Shown: in pieces, positions 3,599-61,237 of the stretch
Numbering within the stretch: position 1 is the first letter of the stretch
Layout of the letters: each line of letters opens with the position of its first letter
Source of the DNA: an uncultured Alphaproteobacteria bacterium
GTDB taxonomy: Bacteria; Pseudomonadota; Alphaproteobacteria; Rs-D84
Length of the DNA stretch: 64,000 nt
Assembly (NCBI GenBank): GCA_944389495.1
Contig: CALXMN010000003.1
Span: forward strand, 10,862-74,861
Reading direction: 5' to 3'
Translations under genes and position numbers: made by a program
Notes under the pieces: generated by a model
Database searches by the model: none
What the model was told of the DNA's origin: nothing
Seen by the model: only the letters and a program-made list of their open reading frames with translations

Positions 3599-4471
3599 AT
3601 GCCAAAAATAAAAGAAACAAATCGTGGCCTTATGGACATACCGTTGTCGTGCAGTATGTTTCTAGAACCTGCGCTGAACAAGTATGTTCGCAACATAGAA
3701 CCATTATCGCGTGAAACCAAACATTTTGTACACGAATGGAATCTGGCATTGGTTGATATATTAAAAACATCGCGATATTCTGGGGCATTGGGCGAACTTG
3801 GGCGAAAAATTTTATCCCGTACCATCAAATCTGATAATTTCCCGACCAAGTGTGTTGAAACGGCGCAAAATGTACCATTGCATTCATTGCATTATGCAAT
3901 ACGATTTTCCGAAAGTGTTGGATTTTTGGTCAAGAAAATTCGTGCAAATCCTAATATAAAGTTTGTTGATTTTGGGTGTGGTTTATCGCCATTGGCCCCG
4001 ATTATCCAGGCGGAATATGATGTTTCCTATGCATACTGTATTGATATTCATCCCGAAATAATAGATGTGTACAGTCGGGCATCCGAAAAAGTTTCTGGTC
4101 GTGCCCCGTGCAGTATCTCGTGGGAAGAGGCAAAGTCTATGGCGTTATCCAAAGACCTAAATACGATCGTTGCGATGGGTGTATTACCATATATTTCGTT
4201 GGATGACCAGGTTGCGAATTTAAAGTTTATAAACAGCCATTTTGCAAATTTCTTGGTTGAAATAAAGTATAATAACAACGCGGAAACGGCGGGTAAAAAC
4301 GTATTTGATTTAAAACGTTTGCAGAAACTGCGCCTGTCGGTGGAAAACACCCAAACATTGGAAACACGAATGATTCAAAATTCATTACGTTATTTGCATA
4401 AATTTTTGGGTGCTATGCCGGGCAAGCGCTATTTTCTGGATAATGACCGCAGTTTGTTTTTAAGCAGATAA
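3599..4471 (+). CDS. Hypothetical protein, possibly a class I SAM-dependent methyltransferase
   Basis: VDFGCGLSPLAP resembles methyltransferase motif I. The match is weak. Confidence 0.3.
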   Translation: MPKIKETNRGLMDIPLSCSMFLEPALNKYVRNIEPLSRETKHFVHEWNLALVDILKTSRYSGALGELGRKILSRTIKSDNFPTKCVETAQNVPLHSLHYAIRFSESVGFLVKKIRANPNIKFVDFGCGLSPLAPIIQAEYDVSYAYCIDIHPEIIDVYSRASEKVSGRAPCSISWEEAKSMALSKDLNTIVAMGVLPYISLDDQVANLKFINSHFANFLVEIKYNNNAETAGKNVFDLKRLQKLRLSVENTQTLETRMIQNSLRYLHKFLGAMPGKRYFLDNDRSLFLSR

Positions 4472-4477
4472 TATATT

Positions 4478-4759
4478 TTACTGCATTGCACACGCGTTGG
4501 TAAATTCATATGTCCCGGCGTTGTCTGTATACGGTGTGTTTGCCGGTGCGTACATAATGCACACCCCACTGGGGGCGGATACCAGGCAACTGGTTGCCGT
4601 TCCCAGTGACACATACCCGGTGGGACACGATCCATCAAAGATAGTCAGGCTGTAATTGTATTTGGCAATAAAGCCCGTAGGACACGATGTAGACGGCGCG
4701 GCGGCAAATGCGCCCACCGGCATACATATCATAATTAAAATAAATACCAATTTCATCAC
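4478..4759 (-). CDS. Family B small secreted Cys-rich protein (copy 1)
   Basis: Signal peptide, then AAPSTSCPTGF...GSCPTGYVS...CIMYAPANTPYTDNAGTYEFTNAC. It lies 9 bp downstream of family A copy 1. Confidence 0.6.
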   Translation of the reverse strand: MMKLVFILIMICMPVGAFAAAPSTSCPTGFIAKYNYSLTIFDGSCPTGYVSLGTATSCLVSAPSGVCIMYAPANTPYTDNAGTYEFTNACAMQ

Positions 4760-4768
4760 GGATGCCTT

Positions 4769-5194
4769 TTACATTAAACTTGAAAACGCTGCTGTCCGAA
4801 AAGATTCTGAGCTGGCGAATGAATACGCGCAATCATATGCACAGTCACTTGAACAGGTGCTGGCCGATCCGTATGAACCATTGTATAACCAGTAATATGA
4901 TACGGCTGGCCCAATCACTCTGCACCAACAATATTTATTGTTATTTAATGTGCCGCTAAGTTCCAACATATGTGCGGTTTCGCCGATGGTGCCGCCATTT
5001 TGGGATGAACATACGGCAATACCGGAAACATTGCGGCCACGGCACGAGTTTGCCCAATTATAACCACCGAGGCTTCCGTCATCTATCAGACAGGGTGTTT
5101 GTGGAATTTAAATGCATTGGGTAACGCCCTCGTTGGATGGTATTATATGCAGAATACATATTGCGGCGGTCGCGATTAGTATCTTGGATTTCAT
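4769..5194 (-). pseudogene. Family A secreted Cys-rich protein (copy 1), interrupted by one in-frame TAA at 5107-5109
   Basis: The reverse complement translates MKSKILIATAAICILHIIPSNEGVTQCI*IPQT...NNNKYCWCRVIGPAVSYYW...FRTAAFSSL. The stop replaces the Lys of the conserved VTKCVKL. RBS aggag precedes the ATG. Confidence 0.5.
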
Positions 5195-5300
5195 TTTTCT
5201 TATCTCCTGAGTTTCCTTATAAAAAACCACCAAATACATTGGTGGCCAGGAGATTCGAAACAATTACCAGAATTGTGTCACTTATTTGATATTCGTGACC
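5195..5300 (-). promoter_or_regulatory. Structured 5' leader of A copy 1: two hairpins, the second terminator-like (ccaccaatgtatttggtgg + T-tract) just before the RBS
   Basis: Same architecture as the leaders of A copies 3, 4 and 5. Confidence 0.4.
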
Positions 5301-5392
5301 CTCCTGACCAAAAAATCAGGAGTTTATTTATCGTCGTAATAAAAAACAACGCACACGCGCCGTTCAAATATCGACGCTGGTATTCGGGTTTC

Positions 5393-5423
5393 GACACCCC
5401 ATCAATGGAACACCCATTGACAA
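5393..5423. promoter_or_regulatory. Conserved palindromic upstream motif GACACCCCATCAATGGAACACCCATTGACAA (A copy 1)
   Basis: The same motif sits 150-230 bp upstream of A copies 3, 4 and 5. It has an internal inverted repeat, TCAATGG/CCATTGA. Confidence 0.45.
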
Positions 5424-5520
5424 TAATTATACTATCGCATTGCACAATTTAATGCAAGATGAAAAAGTCATAGTTCTTGATATGCTTATTATGTGTTTGC
5501 AAAGAAATTTGAAAACATAC

Positions 5521-14314: not shown

Positions 14315-14410
14315 AAAGTATGCGCGGTCATAGTTAACATATGGACAAAAATCGTCGCTTGACTTGAATTATAAAATCACATAAAATATTGCATTGATAA
14401 GCAGTTTTTT

Positions 14411-14519
14411 ATGCCGAATTTAAACGTCCGTTTTATCGGGCGTTTTTATTTTATAAAAAAATCCGATTTTCCGCACTTTTTGCTTTTATGTATATGCCGA
14501 AAAAAAACGGACGTTTGGA
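14411..14519. repeat. GCCGAA palindromic element (degenerate copy)
   Basis: ATGCCGAATTTAAACGTCCG...internal hairpin...ATGCCGAAAAAAAACGGACGTTTGGATTCGGC. Same architecture as the elements at 27885 and 49555. It lies directly upstream of A copy 2. Confidence 0.5.
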
Positions 14520-14545
14520 TTCGGCCAAAAATCAGGGGAAAAATA

Positions 14546-14953
14546 ATGGGTGTTTTAAAGACTTTGTTTTTGCTTGTAATCGCAATTACATTCTGCCAAC
14601 CGGCGTCTGCCGTTACCAAATGCGTAAAATTAAATTCATCAACAACGTGTTCCGATTATTCGGGCGCATTCGGTCAATCAAATTGGTCCGCGACATGCGG
14701 TGGCATATCAATACAGGGTGTTACATTTTGTGGTTCGCAAAACGGCGGTTCAGTTGGTGCAACAACCGACGCCGTTACGACCAGTTCAACCAATAAATAT
14801 TGTTGGTGTAAAATGGTATCACCTGCGGTGTCGCGCTGGGTTTTCGCCGGCGCGGATGATCATTGCGCGTACCGTTGCGCGGACGCCTGTGCGGGCTTCG
14901 CTCCGGCCACTGAGACTTTCCGGTCTGCGTTGTTCTCGGGTCTCGGCGATTGA
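14546..14953 (+). CDS. Family A secreted Cys-rich protein (copy 2)
   Basis: RBS aggggaaaaataATG. MGVLKTLFLLVIAITFCQPASAVTKCVKLNSS...NKYCWCKMVSPAVSRWVF...FRSALFSGLGD. Confidence 0.6.
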   Translation: MGVLKTLFLLVIAITFCQPASAVTKCVKLNSSTTCSDYSGAFGQSNWSATCGGISIQGVTFCGSQNGGSVGATTDAVTTSSTNKYCWCKMVSPAVSRWVFAGADDHCAYRCADACAGFAPATETFRSALFSGLGD

Positions 14954-25839: not shown

Positions 25840-26235
25840 TCATTGCAAGGAAGGGCGCCCGGCAATCTTCTCTTGTCATTGCGAGCCACGTCAGTGGCGT
25901 GGCAATCCAGTAAATAAAAAAGCACTGCGGGCATCGCCCGCAGACATAATAAACCTGAATTGCTTCGTTTCACTCGCAATGACAATGTACTTATGCAGCC
26001 GTTGTTTCCTATAGTTGTACGACTTTTGTCTCCCCATTTGTCATTGCAAGGGAGGAGCACCCGGCAATCTTCTTTTGTCATTGCGAGCCACGTCAGTGGC
26101 GTGGCAATCCATAATACGGTATTTGCCACCGCAAATAAGTTTATAATAACTGGATCGCCACGGTCGTTACACTCCCTCGCGATGACAAGGGTTGGGGACA
26201 CGGGCGCCACCAGTGCGTCACGTTACGGGATGACG
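25840..26235. repeat. Array of MITE-like palindromic elements with terminal inverted repeats TTGTCATTGCGAG / CTCGCAATGACAA
   Basis: Several units, each with an internal hairpin (GCCACGTCAGTGGCGTGGC, CTGCGGGCATCGCCCGCAG). The array is reiterated at 36992-37300 and 52375-52470. Confidence 0.6.
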
Positions 26236-26238
26236 GAA

Positions 26239-26526
26239 TTATTCCAGTGGACAGGCCTGGTCAAATTCATATGTGCCGTATGTGTCTGTGTATTCTGTAT
26301 ATGCCGGTGCATACATAATGCACGCCCCAGACGGTGACGCCACCAAACAACTGTCCGCAGTGCCGACGGATGTGTATCCGGATGGGCACGAACCATCCGA
26401 TATTATTAAATATTCTTCTTCTATTGTTGCATAGTCCGACGGGCACGATGTTGACGGTGCGGCGGCAAATGATGCACACGGCACAATCGCCATAATTAAA
26501 ACCGATATTCGTTTCATATTCGCCAC
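26239..26526 (-). CDS. Family B small secreted Cys-rich protein (copy 4)
   Basis: MANMKRISVLIMAIVPCASFAAAPSTSCPSDYATIEEEYLIISDGSCPSGYTSVGTADSCLVASPSGACIMYAPAYTEYTDTYGTYEFDQACPLE. Confidence 0.6.
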   Translation of the reverse strand: MANMKRISVLIMAIVPCASFAAAPSTSCPSDYATIEEEYLIISDGSCPSGYTSVGTADSCLVASPSGACIMYAPAYTEYTDTYGTYEFDQACPLE

Positions 26527-26532
26527 CCCAAT

Positions 26533-26961
26533 TTAGTCAGACAGATTACTGAACATCGCGGACCGGAAAGACGCATTGTCCGCTGCGCGGTACGCACAGC
26601 TGTACGCGCAACGATAGCCACAATACGACGTCCCGAGGACGTTGTTGTACACCCAAGACGACACGGCCGGAGATACCATTTTGCACCAGCAATATTTGTC
26701 ATCAGTACCGCCACTAATTTCCAAAGCCGTCGCTGTCTGGCCAATTGAACTGCCACTTGTGCTGGAACATTGACTTATGCCCCTTATTGCGATACTTGTT
26801 CCACTGGTGGTACAATTTGATGTCCAGTCAACAACATTATACCCAGGCTCAACAAACGAACACGTTGTTGATGATGACAGTTTTACGCATTTTGTGACGG
26901 CCGCGGCCGGTGGGATTGTGGCCGCACAAATCAGACCCGCGATTAATATTTTTGATTTCAT
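26533..26961 (-). CDS. Family A secreted Cys-rich protein (copy 4)
   Basis: RBS aaggag. MKSKILIAGLICAATIPPAAAVTKCVKLSSSTTC...DDKYCWCKMVSPAVSSWVY...ASFRSAMFSNLSD. Confidence 0.6.
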   Translation of the reverse strand: MKSKILIAGLICAATIPPAAAVTKCVKLSSSTTCSFVEPGYNVVDWTSNCTTSGTSIAIRGISQCSSTSGSSIGQTATALEISGGTDDKYCWCKMVSPAVSSWVYNNVLGTSYCGYRCAYSCAYRAADNASFRSAMFSNLSD

Positions 26962-27078
26962 TGTGAACACTCCTTGTGTTTGGGTAAAACAAAAACCACC
27001 AAATTTAAGGTGGTTGGAGGTTCATAGCTATATCAGGTATAGTGTGCTTATTCTATATATTCGCAGCCCTCCAACCCG
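26962..27078 (-). promoter_or_regulatory. Conserved structured leader of A copy 4: long-range helix GGTTGGAGG/CCTCCAACC, then terminator-like hairpin CCACCTTAAATTTGGTGG + T-tract, then RBS
   Basis: About 100 nt, nearly identical to 38050-38165 upstream of A copy 5. Confidence 0.45.
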
Positions 27079-27128
27079 AAACAGTTGGAGCATTTTTACA
27101 TCTTGGTTTGATGCCTGAAAACGGGCTA

Positions 27129-27160
27129 TGACACCCCATCAATGGAACACCCATTGACAA
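27129..27160. promoter_or_regulatory. Conserved palindromic upstream motif (A copy 4): TGACACCCCATCAATGGAACACCCATTGACAA
   Basis: See 5393, 20723 and 38208. Confidence 0.45.
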
Positions 27161-27270
27161 CAGTTATTATAATCACAACAAAAATTCATTTGCAATATGA
27201 AAAATAAATCCTTTGATTTTAGTACGCGGTGCATATAAAATGTAAAACATAAATAAACAAGGAGTTGTCT

Positions 27271-27814: not shown

Positions 27815-27842
27815 ATCCCCATTGTTATGGGGATTTTTTATT
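27815..27842 (+). terminator. Intrinsic terminator after lemA
   Basis: aaaatccccattgttatggggatttttt. Confidence 0.6.
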
Positions 27843-27884
27843 TGACCTTGTGCCATATTTTATGTATTATATATTACGAAATAA

Positions 27885-27993
27885 ATGCCGAAAACAAACC
27901 ACCGGTTTATGGTGGCTTTTTTTGTGTTTTAAAAATCCCTGTTTTCTGGGGCTTTTTGTTTTTTTATTGTGCCGAATACAAACGGTGGTTTTG
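27885..27993. repeat. GCCGAA palindromic element
   Basis: ATGCCGAAAACAAACCACCGGTTTATGGTGG...internal hairpin (aaaatccctgttttctggggcttttt)...GCCGAATACAAACGGTGGTTTT. About 110 bp, with inverted termini. Copies at 49555 and 14411. Confidence 0.55.
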
Positions 27994-28015
27994 CACAGAT
28001 TTTGACTAAGGGGGA

Positions 28016-28726
28016 ATGTGTAAAATGAACCGTTCTTGTATAAGATTTTTTGGATATATTTTTGCCGGGATTACGTCGCTGATGGGGCGTATTAATAATG
28101 CCACTGCGGGACAAATAGGTAATACTTACTATGAAACAATTGTAAACCAAGTCCAGGCATATGGTTCAAGGTGTCGCAGCATAATTCAAGAATTATGCCC
28201 CGGCGCATACTGCAACGATTTTTCTGTTGATGGTTATGAATGTCGCGGTGATGGTTCGGGAATAATTTGTAACTCGCAATGGGTTTTTGCATATCGCAAT
28301 GCCGATTATACAGATGATATGGGGGTATATGCTTCTGATTCAAACAGTGACGGATGTCATTATACGGAATATGGAATGTGGAACAATTTTTCGCATTATG
28401 AATTTGATTCGTGTGTATTCGGTTCATATATTACAACGTCATCTATCCCGTCAAGAATTTATAATCTTTCCCAGATGGAACAATATTGCGCCCCGTGTTC
28501 GGGCCTTGATTATCGTGATGGTCAATTTATTACATATGACCCCAGTGGCGCGTTAAGCAGCAACTTTTTTTCTTGGTATTCACTGAATACCAGTAATCCA
28601 AATTCCCAGGTTGGAATAACAACCTGTCGCGCAGACCAAAATTATAGCGCCGGGGAACTTGAATTTTCGGATTCGTCGGGGCACGGAACAATTACAATTC
28701 CTATAAGTTGCACATATGTTGAATAG
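28016..28726 (+). CDS. Large Cys-rich secreted protein (about 236 aa). Hypothetical.
   Basis: Hydrophobic N-terminus with many Cys. Shares the YTDDMGVY...YTEYGMWNNFSHYEFDSC motif with family B. Followed by a glycosyltransferase gene. Confidence 0.5.
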   Translation: MCKMNRSCIRFFGYIFAGITSLMGRINNATAGQIGNTYYETIVNQVQAYGSRCRSIIQELCPGAYCNDFSVDGYECRGDGSGIICNSQWVFAYRNADYTDDMGVYASDSNSDGCHYTEYGMWNNFSHYEFDSCVFGSYITTSSIPSRIYNLSQMEQYCAPCSGLDYRDGQFITYDPSGALSSNFFSWYSLNTSNPNSQVGITTCRADQNYSAGELEFSDSSGHGTITIPISCTYVE

Positions 28727-32543: not shown

Positions 32544-33464
32544 ATGATGAACGAGTACGTTGTCGACTTTGTTAATTATTTGACACAGACGAAAAATTAT
32601 TCTGTGCATACGGCAACGTCGTATGAAATGGACATCTGCGACTTTATAAAGTTTTATAATAATTATATTGGCGCAGATGTTTCGTTATCGGACCTTGCGC
32701 GTGCCGATACAATTTGTTTTCGTGCGTGGTTGGCGGATCGGTCGCGTCGAAATTTGGCGCATAAGTCAACCGCGCGTGCATTATCGTCTTTACGCGGATT
32801 TTATAAATTCTTGGCCAAGCGTTACGGTGTGCAAAATAATGCAATTGGTTTAATTTCTTCGCCCAAGGTTCCGCGTAAATTATCCAAGGCCATCGATGTT
32901 GCCGATGTTAAACAGATGCACGATGCCATTCGTGAAATTGACGAACGTGAACCGTGGATTGCCGCGCGTGATTGGGCGTTGGTTTTATTGATGTTTGGAT
33001 GCGGCCTGCGCATATCCGAGGCATTATCTTTAAAAAATACAGATGTTCGCGGACGTCCCGATTCTTTGCGTATTTTGGGCAAAGGCGCCAAGGAACGAAT
33101 TGTTCCCGTATTGCCGGCCGTATTGGATGCGATTGAAAAATATATTGCTGTGCGTCCATTTGGCAATGCGCCCGAAGACAAGTTGTTTCGCAGTATCCGT
33201 GGTTTGCCTATGTCGCCGCGTATGGCCGAAAAAGTTATCGAAAAATTGCGCCATTATTTACAGTTGCCCGATTATGTAACCCCGCACGCGTTGCGTCATA
33301 CTTTTGCGACGGCTTTGTTGGCGGGTGGGGCGGATTTACGTAGCCTCCAGGAATTATTGGGGCATTCGTCTATATCCACGACCCAATTATATACGCGTGT
33401 AAATATGTCAGAAATAATGAATGTTTACGAACACGCCCACCCATTGGCCGATTCCGATGAATAA
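32544..33464 (+). CDS. xerD: Tyrosine recombinase XerC/XerD
   Basis: HALRHTFATALLAGGADLRSLQELLGHSSISTTQLYTRV, with catalytic R..HxxR..Y. Confidence 0.8.
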   Translation: MMNEYVVDFVNYLTQTKNYSVHTATSYEMDICDFIKFYNNYIGADVSLSDLARADTICFRAWLADRSRRNLAHKSTARALSSLRGFYKFLAKRYGVQNNAIGLISSPKVPRKLSKAIDVADVKQMHDAIREIDEREPWIAARDWALVLLMFGCGLRISEALSLKNTDVRGRPDSLRILGKGAKERIVPVLPAVLDAIEKYIAVRPFGNAPEDKLFRSIRGLPMSPRMAEKVIEKLRHYLQLPDYVTPHALRHTFATALLAGGADLRSLQELLGHSSISTTQLYTRVNMSEIMNVYEHAHPLADSDE

Positions 33465-36991: not shown

Positions 36992-37300
36992 GGATTCATT
37001 GCGAGCCACGTTAGTGGCGCGGCAATCCTGTAAATAAAAAAGTACCGCGGGCATCGCCCGCAGACATAATAAAACTGGATTGCTTCGTTTTACTCGCAAT
37101 GACAATGTACTTATGCAGCCGTTGTTTCCTATAGTTGTACAACTTTTGCCTTTCCTCTTGTTATTGCGAGCCACACAGTGGCGTGGCAATCCATAATACG
37201 GTATTTGCCGCCGCAAATAAGTTTATAATAACTGGATCGCCACGGTCGTTACACTCCCTCGCGATGACAAGGGTGGGGGACACTGGCACCACCAGTGCGT
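36992..37300. repeat. MITE-like TTGTCATTGCGAG-type palindromic element array, part of the segmental duplication
   Basis: Homologous to 25869-26235, with point differences. Some differences are compensatory within hairpins. Confidence 0.6.
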
Positions 37301-37320
37301 CACGTTACGGGATGACGGAA

Positions 37321-37608
37321 TTATTCCAGCGGACAGGCCTGGTCAAATTCATATGTGCCGTATGTGTCTGTGTATTCTGTATATGCCGGTGCATACATAA
37401 TGTACGAACCCGCGGGTGACGAAATCAGACAACTGGTTGCAGTGCCGGCGGATGTGTAACCCGATGGGCACGAACCATCCGCAATATCCATATGTTCTTC
37501 CACCACCGTGACATATCCCGATGGACACGAAGTGGACGGCGCGGCGGCAAATGATGCACACGGCACAATCGCCATAATTAAAACCGATATTCGTTTCATA
37601 TTCGCCAC
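37321..37608 (-). CDS. Family B small secreted Cys-rich protein (copy 5)
   Basis: MANMKRISVLIMAIVPCASFAAAPSTSCPSGYVTVVEEHMDIADGSCPSGYTSAGTATSCLISSPAGSYIMYAPAYTEYTDTYGTYEFDQACPLE. Confidence 0.6.
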   Translation of the reverse strand: MANMKRISVLIMAIVPCASFAAAPSTSCPSGYVTVVEEHMDIADGSCPSGYTSAGTATSCLISSPAGSYIMYAPAYTEYTDTYGTYEFDQACPLE

Positions 37609-37614
37609 TCCAAT

Positions 37615-38040
37615 TTAGTCAGACAGATTACTGAACAACGCGGACCGTGTTGTTTCATTGGCACGGATAATGCTAGCACAATAATTACTACAAGAAGAGC
37701 AAGTCATAGCAGCGGAAACAGGGCCATTTATTACACCAAAGTATACCCATTGCGATACTGCGGGACTAATCATTCTGCACCAACAATACTCATTTGAATC
37801 AATTGAAGAAGCCATAGATAATGAAGTTGCCGTTGCGCCAAGGTCTTCGCCTTTTTGGTTGCTACAAAATGAAACGCCGCTGACAGACACGCCATTACAA
37901 GTCATAGACCAATCTGACCCTTTGCCGGAAACGTTTGAACACGTTGTTGATGACGTTAATTTTACGCATTTGGTAACGGCAAACGCCGGTGGGATTGTGG
38001 CCGCGCACAGCAGGCCGGCAATTAATAAATATTTTTTCAT
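37615..38040 (-). CDS. Family A secreted Cys-rich protein (copy 5)
   Basis: RBS aggagg. MKKYLLIAGLLCAATIPPAFAVTKCVKLTSSTTC...NEYCWCRMISPAVSQWVY...TTRSALFSNLSD. The ORF-track N-terminal extension is spurious. Confidence 0.6.
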   Translation of the reverse strand: MKKYLLIAGLLCAATIPPAFAVTKCVKLTSSTTCSNVSGKGSDWSMTCNGVSVSGVSFCSNQKGEDLGATATSLSMASSIDSNEYCWCRMISPAVSQWVYFGVINGPVSAAMTCSSCSNYCASIIRANETTRSALFSNLSD

Positions 38041-38049
38041 TCTAAACCT

Positions 38050-38165
38050 CCTTGTTTTCATTGCGAATGAAAAAACCACCAAATTTAAGGTGGTTGGAGG
38101 TTCATAGCTATATCAGGTATAGTGTGCTTATTCTATATATTCGCAACCCTCCAACCCGAAAGTGG
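38050..38165 (-). promoter_or_regulatory. Conserved structured leader of A copy 5
   Basis: Near-identical to 26962-27078. Confidence 0.45.
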
Positions 38166-38207
38166 AGGTGATTTTTTATGTCATCTCTGACAATTACAAA
38201 GGGCTAC

Positions 38208-38237
38208 TACACCCCATCAGTGAATACCCACTGACGG
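38208..38237. promoter_or_regulatory. Conserved palindromic upstream motif, variant TACACCCCATCAGTGAATACCCACTGACGG (A copy 5)
   Basis: The inverted repeat changes from CAATGG/CCATTG to CAGTG/CACTG. The palindrome is kept. Confidence 0.45.
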
Positions 38238-38366
38238 TTATTATAATATCGTGTTATGTTTATTAATGCAAGGGGTTAATACTTATACCCGACGTTCACG
38301 ATTACCGCCGAACCACCCCACAAATCATATACGTTGGAATAAAAACGCCGCCCATTTGGGCGGAAT

Positions 38367-44005: not shown

Positions 44006-44082
44006 GCGAGCGTAGCTCAGTTGGCTAGAGCGCAACCTTGCCAAGGTTGAGGTCGAGGGTTCGAGCCCCTTTGCTCGCACCA
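44006..44082 (+). tRNA. tRNA-Gly (anticodon GCC)
   Basis: GCGAGCG acceptor, D-loop AGTTGGCTA, anticodon loop TTGCCAA, T-loop TTCGAGC, 3' ACCA. Confidence 0.85.
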
Positions 44083-44300
44083 AAGTTTTGTAAAAATCCG
44101 CCGAATGGTGGATTTTTTTGTTGCTATTTTAATGCAAAGGGGCTCGAACCCGCAGGGTTGCGAGGCGAGCCGCAGGCGAAGTACTTTGCTCGCACCAAAG
44201 TTTTATAAAAATCCGCCGAATGGTGGATTTTTTTGTTGCTATTTTAATGCAAAGGGGCTCGAACCCGCAGGGGGTATGTCACACAACGTAAATCCTGTGC
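44083..44300 (+). repeat. Tandem ~110-bp duplication downstream of tRNA-Gly, containing tRNA 3'-end-like fragments
   Basis: Two near-identical units (aagttttgtaaaaatccgccgaatggtggatttttttgttgctattttaatgcaaaggggctcgaacccgcagg...) and a third partial unit. Each carries a terminator hairpin and a GGGGCTCGAACCCGCAGG T-arm-like segment. One also has ...tttgctcgcacca. Confidence 0.55.
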
Positions 44301-49392: not shown

Positions 49393-49554
49393 TTTGTATG
49401 TCGGCCCAGTAAAGTAATTTGATAAAATAAAATATCCACACGGTGGTGTAATATATTTTGCCCGCGATAATAAAAATGCGTCATATTAATTCCCAAATGA
49501 ATAAATTTTAGTTGACTGTACAATGAATTTTTTGATAACATATGCATAAGTGAG

Positions 49555-49663
49555 ATGCCGAAAACAAACCACCGTTTGGATTCGGCGTTTTTATTTTTGC
49601 CAAAATCCCGAAATTTCGGGATTTTTTTATTTCTTGGTATGCCGAATCCAAACGGTGGTTTTT
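49555..49663. repeat. GCCGAA palindromic element
   Basis: ATGCCGAAAACAAACCACCGTTTGGATTCGGC...aaaatcccgaaatttcgggattttttt...ATGCCGAATCCAAACGGTGGTTTTT. Directly upstream of the Cys-rich gene at 49684. Confidence 0.55.
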
Positions 49664-49683
49664 ATGAAAGCAAAGGAAAGAAA

Positions 49684-50391
49684 ATGAAAATTTTATTAAA
49701 AAGACATACGACTGCAAATGAATACAAGTATTCGCGCGGGGTAAAATTTCCTTTTTTTCATTGGTTTTTGGTTCTTGCCATCAGTGTGTGTGACTGGATA
49801 ATCAAGACAAATGATGCGATGGCGGCAACCTGTACCAGCACCCAGGCGGCGTCTTGTTCGGCCCAATGCCCCAGTCCGCTGTTTGGTTCTTGTGTCGCCA
49901 GTTATAATACATTCAGTTGCAGTTGTTACATTTCAAACGAGGCGTATTCCGGCGTATGCTCAGAATTTTCGGTACATCGTAATGCGTGTTTATTAGCTGT
50001 GAACAGTGCAATTAATTGCGGCAACGGGCGCAAGATTCATTGTATATCATATAATTTGAACAGTTATAATTGTACAACGGCCGGCGTTAATTCGGCCCAG
50101 GCCATTTGTGGTCGTGTATTTCCAATAAATCTTAATGCGACCAGTACGCAATGTTCCTGTATTTATTCTACGGTGGCAAATGGTGTTTGTAACTGTTTTG
50201 CGTGCAAGACATATTATTATGGGGTTGGTTGTTATAATTCGTGCCCATCATATTATGTGTCTGGATACGGCACAATATACGGTACCAGTGGTAAGTGGGG
50301 CGGAAACATAGGCAGTTGCACGGTTTCGGTCCCCGAAGGATGTGATACAACGGGTTGTTACAATGCACACACTTGTCCGTATAAAATCTAA
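49684..50391 (+). CDS. Large Cys-rich secreted protein (about 235 aa). Hypothetical.
   Basis: N-terminal TM or signal segment. About 40 Cys in C..C / CxC patterns. Followed by two glycosyltransferase genes. Confidence 0.5.
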   Translation: MKILLKRHTTANEYKYSRGVKFPFFHWFLVLAISVCDWIIKTNDAMAATCTSTQAASCSAQCPSPLFGSCVASYNTFSCSCYISNEAYSGVCSEFSVHRNACLLAVNSAINCGNGRKIHCISYNLNSYNCTTAGVNSAQAICGRVFPINLNATSTQCSCIYSTVANGVCNCFACKTYYYGVGCYNSCPSYYVSGYGTIYGTSGKWGGNIGSCTVSVPEGCDTTGCYNAHTCPYKI

Positions 50392-52215: not shown

Positions 52216-52261
52216 GGCGTTTTAATTTAAAAATATATGGATATTGTGTTGTCTGATTCCA

Positions 52262-52360
52262 TTACCCGTGGGTTCGTGCATTATGTTTGCGCCGCCATAT
52301 ACAGAATACAGTGACAGCACCGGCACATATGAATTTACGGCCGCCTGTCCGCTGGAATAA
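52262..52360 (+). pseudogene. Promoter-less 3' fragment of a family B gene (...MFAPPYTEYSDSTGTYEFTAACPLE*)
   Basis: Homologous to B C-termini. No N-terminus or signal peptide. Confidence 0.5.
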
Positions 52361-52374
52361 CCATATCATACTGT

Positions 52375-52470
52375 GCCCCCATCTTTGTCATTGCGAGGGG
52401 GGGGCAGCCGGCATTTTCTCTTGTCATTGCGAGCCATCGCAGATGGCGTGGCAATCCAGTTGTCTGATTC
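52375..52470. repeat. MITE-like TTGTCATTGCGAG elements (two units) between the two B 3' fragments
   Basis: ttgtcattgcgagggg... and ttgtcattgcgagccatcgcagatggcgtggcaatcc, the second with hairpin GCCATC-GCA-GATGGC. Confidence 0.55.
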
Positions 52471-52489
52471 CATCATCCGCGGTATGCCC

Positions 52490-52558
52490 CGGCAAATACA
52501 GAATACACGGAAGTATCCAGCATATATGAATATACCGCCGCCTGCCCACTGGAATAGA
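52490..52558 (+). pseudogene. Second promoter-less family B 3' fragment (...PANTEYTEVSSIYEYTAACPLE*)
   Basis: Reading-frame match to the B C-terminal motif. Confidence 0.45.
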
Positions 52559-52587
52559 TAAACAATCTCTGTTCTCCGTTCTCTGAA

Positions 52588-52612
52588 CAAACGGGGCAAA
52601 AGCCCCGTTTTT
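52588..52612 (-). terminator. Intrinsic terminator downstream of the RNase J gene
   Basis: aaacggggcaaaagccccgttttta. Confidence 0.5.
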
Positions 52613-60159: not shown

Positions 60160-60475
60160 AATTATATTCCTGGCCTGGATTATAGCGCACACATTGCCCG
60201 TTTCAATAAAAGATTCCCGATAATAAAAACTTGTTAACGAAACACATTTGTGTTAACCTGTGCAACGACGTGGGGAATTCCCGCGTTGGGGCATCTAAAC
60301 CTCTATGCTGTGTGTCCGTGGGGACATAAAATACCCTCCAACTCTTTTGGTTGGGGGACGGTGAATATATTGAATAAACCGTGCTATCTCACAGTATATA
60401 GTTTAGAACCTCCAACCACCTGATTTTTATCTGGTGGTTTTTTCGTTAACAAAATCGAAAAAAGGGTTCTAAAAA

Positions 60476-61237
60476 ATGAAGAAATCACTAATGTTCATCG
60501 TGGTGTGTGGACTGACAGGGCGGGCACTTGCCGGGTCTTTAAGTTGCACATCTACATATAATTCTTTACCATCGGGCTATTCTGCCGGCGGATCTGGCAC
60601 GTCGCCCAGTCATTGTTTAAGTTCTTATACTGGTTACCAATGTAACAGCAGTACACGCCAATGCGACACGGTGCAAAATTGTACCTCGTGTACATCGGGA
60701 TATTACCCCAGCCAGATTACCGTCCCCAGCAGTGGTGTTTGTTCTACTGTTACGTTTTCTTCGTGTTGTACCCAGTGCTATGATTGCACCAGCGATACCG
60801 ATTACCAATATTACAGTCCCGGCTATCTGCGCAAAGCAAATCGTTGGTGTAATTGTGGTGTTTGTGAAACATCGTACGTCTATAAGTGCGCCGACGGATA
60901 CTATGGCAACCCCGGCGATCAGCCAACCGGATGCGAACCGTGCAAAGAATGCGAAAACTGTGAATCAGACACCGAATGGAAACCCCAACAAATAGAAGGA
61001 TGGGTTGTTAAAGTAACCAGAACTTGTGAATGTGATGGCAGCTGTGTGATAGATAAAATTAGCAATGCGTGTGCTGCAGGGTATTATATGTCGTCTGGTT
61101 GCACCCGATGTCCGGGCGACGGTGATTCGGCCGTGGCCAGCTGGAATATAACAGACTGTTTTATTCCGGGGGGACAAACTCTTTCAGATGAAACTGGATC
61201 TTACGAGTATATATCGGACTGCTATTACAGTTTTTAA
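60476..61237 (+). CDS. Large Cys-rich secreted protein (253 aa). Hypothetical.
   Basis: Signal peptide. Many CxxC / GYY repeats. The C-terminal ETGSYEYISDCYYSF is related to the family B TEY..GTYEF..C motif. Confidence 0.5.
   Translation: MKKSLMFIVVCGLTGRALAGSLSCTSTYNSLPSGYSAGGSGTSPSHCLSSYTGYQCNSSTRQCDTVQNCTSCTSGYYPSQITVPSSGVCSTVTFSSCCTQCYDCTSDTDYQYYSPGYLRKANRWCNCGVCETSYVYKCADGYYGNPGDQPTGCEPCKECENCESDTEWKPQQIEGWVVKVTRTCECDGSCVIDKISNACAAGYYMSSGCTRCPGDGDSAVASWNITDCFIPGGQTLSDETGSYEYISDCYYSF

Follow-up and report, generated by a model that had tools for sequence, protein, structure and literature searches.

A 64,000-nucleotide stretch of alphaproteobacterial DNA (hereafter the window) contains three copies of an element that, in each case, is probably a small switch working by DNA inversion, placed in the 5′ leader of a gene for a Cys-rich secreted protein and setting that gene to an OFF or an ON phase. 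At two of the three loci, both orientations of the inner segment are found in nature with otherwise identical flanks.

In the mechanism we propose, two inverted lox-like sites 84 bp apart would recombine within their centres and so flip the intervening 54-78 bp, with the promoter remaining stationary upstream. Each site would have an asymmetric 4-bp centre, required to match that of its partner, between a conserved arm (TGCCGAAnnnAAAC) and a variable mirror arm. With the segment oriented as in the window, the left site or core would form a hairpin followed by a T-tract carried on the invertible segment, and, with a second hairpin and T-tract behind it, most transcripts would end before the gene (OFF). 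After inversion, the T-tracts would lie on the other strand, the hairpin would be followed by A-rich sequence and transcription would read through (ON). Under this predicted polarity, all three window copies would be in the OFF state. The flipping would be carried out by a dedicated site-specific recombinase, probably of the tyrosine type, and its purpose would be phase variation of surface or secreted proteins.

Architecture of the elements

Copies 1 and 2 (27885-27992 and 49555-49662) form a 108-nt direct-repeat family with 73% identity, and copy 3 (14411-14526) can be aligned to both. An earlier, sequence-only reading of the window had located the three copies at 27885, 49555 and 14411, immediately upstream of genes for secreted Cys-rich proteins, and we find them there, ahead of genes starting at 28016/28025, 49684 and 14546 that encode signal-like N-termini. 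The inverted termini that it had drawn around each element need redrawing. The GCCGAA..CAAAC blocks recur in direct orientation, at distances of 84, 84 and 83 nt in copies 1, 2 and 3; only the core, around AAAC-CACC-G / C-GGTG-GTTT, is inverted; and the proposed terminus CGGTGGTTTGT.TTCGGC is absent from the right ends. As in known invertons, a segment bounded by inverted repeats is present in all three copies, the repeat measuring 12 nt at 92% identity in copy 1, 21 nt without mismatch in copy 2 and 28 nt at 86% identity in copy 3. Within the window, the exact 14-mer TGCCGAANNCAAAC occurs only at 27886, 27970, 49556 and 49640 and at one intragenic position (58395). With up to two mismatches allowed, it has 31 matches against 10.7 expected, a number reached in 0 of 100 shuffles.

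Each copy contains two lox-like units of ~32 bp, in which the arm TGCCGAAnnnAAAC and a variable mirror arm enclose an asymmetric 4-bp centre, with the two unit centres 83-84 bp apart and in inverted orientation. The unit consensus, TGCCGAAnnnAAAC-NNNN-GTTTnnnTTCGGCA, has the inverted arms around a short asymmetric centre that characterize tyrosine-recombinase core sites, and full palindromes of this form occur in many related loci, such as L001, L012, L078 and L154 (L numbers denote loci and contigs from other assemblies). The left centre is CACC in copies 1 and 2 and GTCC in copy 3, and the right centre is its complement, GGTG in copies 1 and 2 and GGAC in copy 3.

All units are given here on the + strand. 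In copy 1, the left unit (27886..27917) has arm TGCCGAAAACAAAC, centre CACC (27900-27903) and a degenerate right arm that pairs with the core to form a hairpin (T1, below); the right unit (27970..28001) has arm TGCCGAATACAAAC and centre GGTG (27984-27987). The left unit of copy 2 (49556..49587) is a near-complete palindrome, GCCGAAAACAAAC-CACC-GTTTGGATTCGGC, followed in the window orientation by GTTTTTATTTTTG, and its partner (49640..49671) has arm TGCCGAATCCAAAC and centre GGTG. Copy 3 has a left unit (14412..14443) with centre GTCC, within CGTCCG, and a right unit (14495..14526) whose centre GGAC covaries with it and whose right arm is derived from another unit. Between the units, a T-tract lies directly 3′ of the left unit, followed by a second hairpin with its own T-tract. 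The gap from the right unit to the ribosome-binding site and start codon is 14-25 nt in all three copies. With a promoter-like site upstream and a ribosome-binding site and ATG after the right unit, the element thus takes the place of a leader between promoter-like site and gene.

Inversion of the inner segment in natural strains

Same-species contigs were obtained from public assemblies via exact copies of neighbouring window proteins. An ENA contig of a gut metagenome from Brazil (BRZ_D NODE_592) has the same sequence as the window itself. At copy 2, contig L126 equals the window with 49587-49640 reverse-complemented and 0 other differences in 200 bp, and L125 carries the same inversion plus 2 SNPs. 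The invertible segment of copy 2 is therefore at minimum 49587..49640 (54 bp) and at maximum 49566-49661 (96 bp), the latter including the perfect 21-nt inverted repeats at 49566-49586 and 49641-49661. Among 15 distinct sample contigs, nine are forward and six flipped (L125, L126, L155, L157, L158 and L159). Flipped L125 is nearest to forward L117, from which it has 10+2 = 12 differences over ~6 kb, versus 36+8 = 44 from flipped L126, and a SNP at the junction is common to forward L123 and flipped L155. Copy 2 therefore seems to have flipped repeatedly on very similar backgrounds: one haplotype is found in either state, and the nearest relative of a flipped strain need not be flipped, which suggests recurrent inversion.

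At copy 1, 19 of 20 contigs are forward and one (L169) is flipped. L169 is the window with 27905-27982 reverse-complemented and no other change in 200 bp, from which the invertible segment of copy 1 spans at least 27905..27982 and at most 27896-27991 (96 bp). Owing to a single mismatch in the repeat, the crossover here is confined to the 9-bp core AAACCACCG / CGGTGGTTT. A crossover in the central region of the unit, as in core sites, is found both at copy 1 (AAACCACCG) and in a deletion at copy 3 described below (CGTTT, at the edge of the centre). The flipped form of copy 3 was seen in none of 8 or more contigs; this count, together with the single flipped contig at copy 1, speaks against a switch.

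These orientation differences lie between samples and come from assembled contigs. An assembly artefact is unlikely, given that reads span the 96-bp segment and that the flipped form appears in independent assemblies from different pipelines. The feature that varies among strains, the orientation of the inner segment, had no place in the sequence-only account.

Promoter-like sites and predicted terminators

All three copies have a sigma-70-like site (TTGACy, 17-18 nt, TAnnAT) 13-22 nt upstream of their left unit and no such site inside the element. On the + strand, it reads TTGACC-17-TATTAT in copy 1 (predicted at 27842..27870, outside the invertible segment), TTGACT-18-TAACAT with a TG extension in copy 2 (49512..49541) and TTGACT-17-TAAAAT in copy 3 (14359..14387). 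These sites are putative promoters of the leaders. The element had been proposed to act as a portable promoter or as a regulatory module in front of this gene class. The first proposal does not suit the window copies, where the promoter-like site is upstream of and outside the element; a promoter between units is found only in related modules elsewhere. The second agrees with the arrangement of all three copies, each of which sits between a promoter-like site and a gene for a Cys-rich secreted protein.

In the window orientation, copy 1 has two terminator-like hairpins on the + strand: T1 at 27899..27925 (27899-27915 in the tool scan), formed by CCACCGGTTTATGGTGG and followed by CTTTTTTTGT, and T2 at 27937..27961 (tool scan, 27937-27951), formed by CCCTGTTTTCTGGGG and followed by CTTTTTGTTT. 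Also on the + strand are T2 of copy 2 (49602..49635; tool scan, 49602-49625), a hairpin with a 10-bp stem, AAAATCCCGAAATTTCGGGATTTT, followed by TTTATTTCTT, and T1 of copy 3 (14422..14455; tool scan, 14422-14445), a hairpin with a T-tract. Of the internal terminator-like hairpins attributed earlier to every copy, those of copies 1 and 2 are present, and that of copy 3 is degenerate.

With the same tool criteria throughout, the forward state of copy 1 shows two terminator-like sites on the sense strand after the promoter-like site, against zero in flipped L169, as T1 and T2 both fall on the minus strand after inversion. Similarly, the tool scan places T2 of copy 2 on the sense strand in the window and on the antisense strand in flipped L126. 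With a looser script, the T2 hairpin of copy 2 retains a UUUUGG tail after inversion, so the ON state of this copy may be partial. The 5′ hairpin folds in both orientations (-12 to -20 kcal/mol), and a U-run follows it in the forward state only. Of 26 elements from many genomes, about 21-23 as found have a hairpin with a U-tract at the left-unit junction, and about 3 do so after in-silico inversion. A left-junction hairpin and U-tract in one orientation only, the hallmark of the cwpV switch of Clostridioides difficile, is thus also predicted in silico here. Orthologous copies (copy 3 of the window and its counterpart in L014) keep the left-junction hairpin through different pairing partners. 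A search of the element against Rfam returned no family at gathering score or E ≤ 1, the sole match being a sub-threshold plant hairpin family over copy 3.

Genes downstream of the elements

Copy 1 precedes a gene for a 233-aa Cys-rich protein with a signal-like N-terminus (28025..28726, + strand; alternative ATG at 28016), followed by a glycosyltransferase gene. The gene after copy 2 (49684..50391, +) encodes 235 aa with 24 Cys (10%) and is followed by two glycosyltransferase genes, and the one after copy 3 (14546..14953, +) encodes a 135-aa Cys-rich secreted protein with the signal peptide ...CQPASA/VTKC. Cys contents of 7.4, 5.5 and 10.2% are found for the three window genes. A tabulation of downstream genes in related genomes, as had been suggested with the first description of the element, bears out the bias: among the matches listed (at least 23 assemblies), wherever a downstream ORF could be identified, the element mostly stands before a protein of 4-10% Cys with a signal-like N-terminus. 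Exceptions are a lysS homologue in L063, the element in L042 and large secreted proteins in L004 and L109. The remaining Cys-rich genes of the window are without this element and have a different structured leader instead.

Two further readings were considered and rejected. Co-duplication of the element with paralogous genes would connect the three downstream proteins, which are without evident similarity when their translations are compared by inspection. A coding or leader-peptide function is contradicted by copy 1, where the frame closes after 15 codons, and by copies 2 and 3, which read the second unit in different frames.

Gene callers use the ATG of ATGCCGAA, which in copies 2 and 3 shares its frame with the ORF that follows. 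In L137, a 180-aa gene call (3857-4399) starts at this ATG and spans the whole putative switch. The ORF starts at this position (14411-14953, 49555-50391 and L137) are an annotation artefact, and annotators should be aware that this ATG produces false N-terminal extensions of downstream genes.

Matched centres and spacing across related genomes

Rs-D84 alphaproteobacteria have genomes of <1 Mb, live in animal and human guts and are uncultured, with an unknown lifestyle (PMC12306168). In conserved genes, the window is 76-85% identical to MAGs labelled Candidatus Enterousia or uncultured Alphaproteobacteria. We scanned one genome per species with a pattern that favours the forward form, so that orientation frequencies across species are biased. 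Unit pairs were found in at least 23 Enterousia/Rs-D84 assemblies, the other listed matches being unrelated coding sequence or other repeats. A closed genome of 958 kb has at least three strict-pattern matches, and the 64-kb window has three copies.

The spacing from centre to centre is 84-85 bp in 44 of 59 unit pairs. Partner centres are complementary in 39 of the 59, compared with a shuffle mean of 22.4, and 39 was reached in 0 of 10,000 shuffles; the matched variants include CTCC/GGAG, GTCC/GGAC and CAGC/GCTG. A recurrent mismatch of one base between the centres of partner units (CACC vs GACC), found in 11 of the 59 pairs, counts against a switch. Such pairs occur in L003, L009, L023, L034, L074, L077, L083, L087, L096 and L101, and they may be locked switches or reflect directional bias. 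The arm TGCCGAAnnnAAAC and the spacing are conserved across loci, and the sequence between units diverges. Synapsis would be very tight with crossover points only 84 bp apart, which counts against a switch; the constancy of this distance may itself reflect a constraint from synapsis.

We put forward tentatively, as a plausible extension that falls somewhat short of probable, that one recombinase serves a genome-wide set of minimal (84-bp) lox-like switches in Enterousia/Rs-D84. The arms would provide shared recognition and the 4-bp centres locus-specific, private addresses, and the sites would flip terminator or promoter cassettes that are sometimes stacked at one gene or placed between divergent genes.

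A deletion at copy 3 and promoter-type modules

Another species (L014) retains copy 3 at the orthologous site. Three same-species contigs, L138-L140, are identical to the window up to ...AAAACGGACGTTT and then continue into a gene for a 218-aa protein and a glycosyltransferase-9/DUF4254 gene, in an order also found in that other species (L014). L141 displays the full order: the copy-3 element, the 218-aa gene, the glycosyltransferase-9 gene, a 94-aa gene, a second unit pair flanking a promoter, and the 135-aa gene. Compared with L141, the window arrangement amounts to the deletion of ~3 kb from the right unit of copy 3 to that of the second pair. The join falls at equivalent positions of these two units, within only 5 shared bases (CGTTT; ~14512-14516), and the right unit of copy 3 in the window is a hybrid of both, which in L141 are separated by ~3 kb. 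Units thus behave like sites of recombination even when they lie in direct orientation.

Units of this kind enclose a TTGACA-17/18-(G)ATAAAAT promoter in other genomes and strains. In L003 and L115, arrays of three units join a promoter module to a terminator module, and in L031 and L045 a promoter module lies between two divergent Cys-rich genes. In many loci (L011, L062, L069, L089, L103 and L141), the promoter is directed away from the adjacent gene, into a unit and T-run. At the one locus that could be sampled, flipping of the promoter module was not seen, with one orientation in 7 of 7 contigs. A metagenome scan with the MAEQIRSFW protein family led to a single locus, L154, in which a homologous collinear module has the opposite orientation relative to the gene; a VirB11-based look-up for promoter modules reached a species without units.

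The locus sampled in these seven contigs is that of the 135-aa gene (14546 in the window), which a unit-promoter-unit module precedes in L141 (2860-2985), L142-L144, L172, L174 and L175, from other strains of the window species. In these strains, the module has a palindromic centre, GGCC, and a promoter facing away from the gene. In L142-L144, a structured leader and a truncated signal-peptide ORF come before the module, and the whole is a mosaic.

Candidate recombinase

The only recombinase gene in the window encodes a XerC-like tyrosine recombinase (32544..33464, + strand), which scores 289 bits against a XerC cutoff of 335 and is a candidate for the enzyme. We searched 20 window proteins against Pfam and NCBIfam and compared the XerC-like protein with all loci by tblastn. 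No recombinase besides the XerC-like protein was found among the 20 window proteins, and none was found in about 50 related loci, which counts against a switch.

Alternative explanations

Several other readings account for part of these observations. The inversions could be real and yet non-adaptive, arising without a recombinase through replication template switching or hairpin processing at short repeats and persisting as neutral polymorphism. Such a process is consistent with the failure to find an invertase and with flips being commoner where the repeat is longer (6 of 15 contigs with the 21-nt perfect repeat, 1 of 20 with the 12-nt imperfect one). We nevertheless consider it unlikely. Copy 3 has the longest repeat of all (28 nt at 86%) and is not flipped, copy 1 flips with an exact core of only 9 bp, and the copy 3 deletion joins equivalent unit positions that share only 5 nt. 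Nor would this process explain the matched centres, the retention of terminator hairpins through different pairing partners in copy 3 and L014, or the conservation of the arm and the 84-85 bp spacing across loci and at least 23 assemblies while the inner sequence has diverged.

A function at the RNA level seems very unlikely. The element might be an attenuator leader controlled by a protein or ligand, or might encode a small hairpin RNA (promoter, left unit and U-run) whose loop would base-pair with the mRNA at the complementary right unit. The tandem arrangement of two terminator-like hairpins within the leader invites such a view, as do the complementary, covarying loops of the two units and the recurrence of promoter-unit-T-run cassettes even where the promoter points away from any gene. 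Covariation extends, however, to units upstream of promoters, which are not co-transcribed (L062 and L089), and the inversion of the inner sequence in many strains would destroy a fixed aptamer. No Rfam family matches the element, and no antiterminator able to form before the terminators is evident.

Still less probable is a mobile miniature element of the MITE, REPIN or Correia type, possibly carrying regulatory signals and inserting preferentially upstream of Cys-rich genes. This is a palindromic, intergenic repeat family with outward promoters in related copies and, in copies 2 and 3, a long hairpin fold (z-scores of -4.7 to -7.3), and insertion in front of this gene class had been entertained in the sequence-only reading. 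Against mobility, we sought empty sites at the three loci and found the element present in all 15-20 strains, and copy 3 is orthologous between species (L014). The features expected of such elements, presence/absence polymorphism, target-site duplication and high copy number, do not appear: copy number is low (three in 64 kb, and at least three strict-pattern matches in the closed 958-kb genome), there is no evident target-site duplication and no transposase was found near the copies.

Least probable of all is that the units are operators of a dimeric transcription factor, two in-phase sites 84 bp apart (8 helical turns) looping the DNA to repress the promoter; palindromic sites, a constant spacing near 8 x 10.5 bp and the overlap of one site with about +8 to +40 would suit such a scheme, which predicts neither inversion with breakpoints in the site centre nor covarying centres and a unit-joined deletion.

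Comparison with known switches

The inversion switch that we favour would work like cwpV of C. difficile, also termed Cdi1, which is operated by the tyrosine recombinase RecV. There, too, the promoter lies outside the invertible region, upstream of the left repeat, and the inverting segment contains neither promoter nor ORF (PMC2784873). In the cwpV OFF state, a hairpin with a poly-U tract forms a terminator at the junction of left repeat and inversion, controlling a surface protein (PMC2784873). The window elements share with cwpV a predicted left-junction terminator in one orientation and a gene for a secreted or surface-type protein, and their promoter-like site may correspond to its fixed upstream promoter. 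They differ in size, with cwpV inverting 195 bp and the segments here 54-78 bp (96 bp with repeats), and the repeats are unrelated. They also differ in forming a conserved multi-locus site family with matched variable centres and a second terminator-like hairpin, and in their host, an alphaproteobacterium with a genome of <1 Mb.

The flagellar switch of C. difficile (Cdi4) is an invertible element in a 5′ UTR with 21-bp inverted repeats, recognised when one strain matched only after reverse-complementing (PMC5386303). At 154 bp, it is larger than the window segments, and its OFF state is reported to be Rho-dependent and not due to an intrinsic terminator (PMC7446863). In gut Bacteroides, one recombinase operates many promoter invertons, as cited in PMC5386303. 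The elements described here resemble these invertons and fimS of E. coli as multi-locus switch families with a shared repeat consensus before surface-structure genes, and related modules here also have a promoter between units. Unlike in those systems, the moving part of the window copies carries predicted terminators and not a promoter, and it is much smaller.

Sites such as loxP, FRT, dif and the sfx sites of the R64 shufflon consist of two inverted protein-binding arms around a short asymmetric centre that sets the orientation and must match that of the partner. In sfx sites, often only one arm is well conserved, and neighbouring sites alternate in orientation. The units here share this design but have no sequence similarity to any of these, and their apparent centre is 4 bp, within AAAC-NNNN-GTTT. 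In Mycoplasma, whose genomes are also reduced, the vsa, vsp and vpma lipoprotein switches use Xer-like recombinases and sites in the conserved 5′ regions of variable surface-protein families, and large inversions move one promoter among genes. As in those systems, rearrangement can reconnect an expression site to a different gene, as seen at copy 3; unlike in them, each locus here has its own promoter and a local 84-bp flip.

Implications

What is new here is that a gut alphaproteobacterial lineage with reduced genomes probably has minimal switches of this kind as a conserved family spread over several loci, in which terminators (and promoters) would be flipped. The rare terminator-flipping design of cwpV would thereby extend to another phylum, in a smaller and more regular form. 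A conserved switch family before Cys-rich secreted proteins points to phase or antigenic variation, which in turn suggests an intimate lifestyle with exposure to an immune system or partner. If our reading is correct, a genome of <1 Mb would hold a combinatorial repertoire of surface proteins, and the modules would be among the smallest natural inversion modules, offering a compact, ready-made part for synthetic recombinase logic. Among the papers searched, none links Rs-D84/RF32 with invertons.

Other structured and variable regions

The other Cys-rich gene clusters of the window are preceded by an unrelated leader of ~200 nt, at 5195-5450 (-), 26975-27185 (-), 38045-38265 (-) and 60255-60476 (+). 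It has a conserved multi-stem fold, with a CCTCCAACCACC..GGTGGTTTTT terminator at its end and possible alternative pairing with an upstream GTTGGAGG; RNAalifold gives 35 pairs, 12 of them with compensatory changes. No Rfam family matches this leader, which is a candidate for a new riboswitch or attenuator. Blocks of ~1.2 kb at 25876-27144 and 36996-38222, 79-93% identical over aligned repeat segments, contain family-A Cys-rich genes together with the structured leader, and further partial copies of this block lie at 4672-5407.

A paralogous Cys-rich family with the invariant N-terminus MAEQIRSFWSHLCGIFGAI is found in L062 (3276-4304) and also in L011, L069, L089 and L154; the C-terminus of the L062 member shows a possible resemblance to the ribosomal L7/L12 C-terminal domain (VIKIVQSVTGLGLKEAKAIVDSAP). 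The spacer at 52216-52610, from a glycosyltransferase-8 gene to an RNase J gene, is several hundred bp longer in some strains than in others (positions 7212-8259 of L117-L126) and holds fragments of a Cys-rich gene repeat family (repeats at 52285 and 52482).

On the 3′ side of the thymidine kinase gene, L146 (5777-9561) and the window (from 16500 onward) have wholly different content: one has a block of PEGA/OMP and Chlam_PMP-like genes and the other a block of Cys-rich genes, and several contigs break there. Finally, positions 44069-44157 and 44184-44272 form a 99% tandem repeat that includes the 3′ end of the tRNA at 44006-44079 and a terminator hairpin, which may be a remnant of integration at the tRNA.
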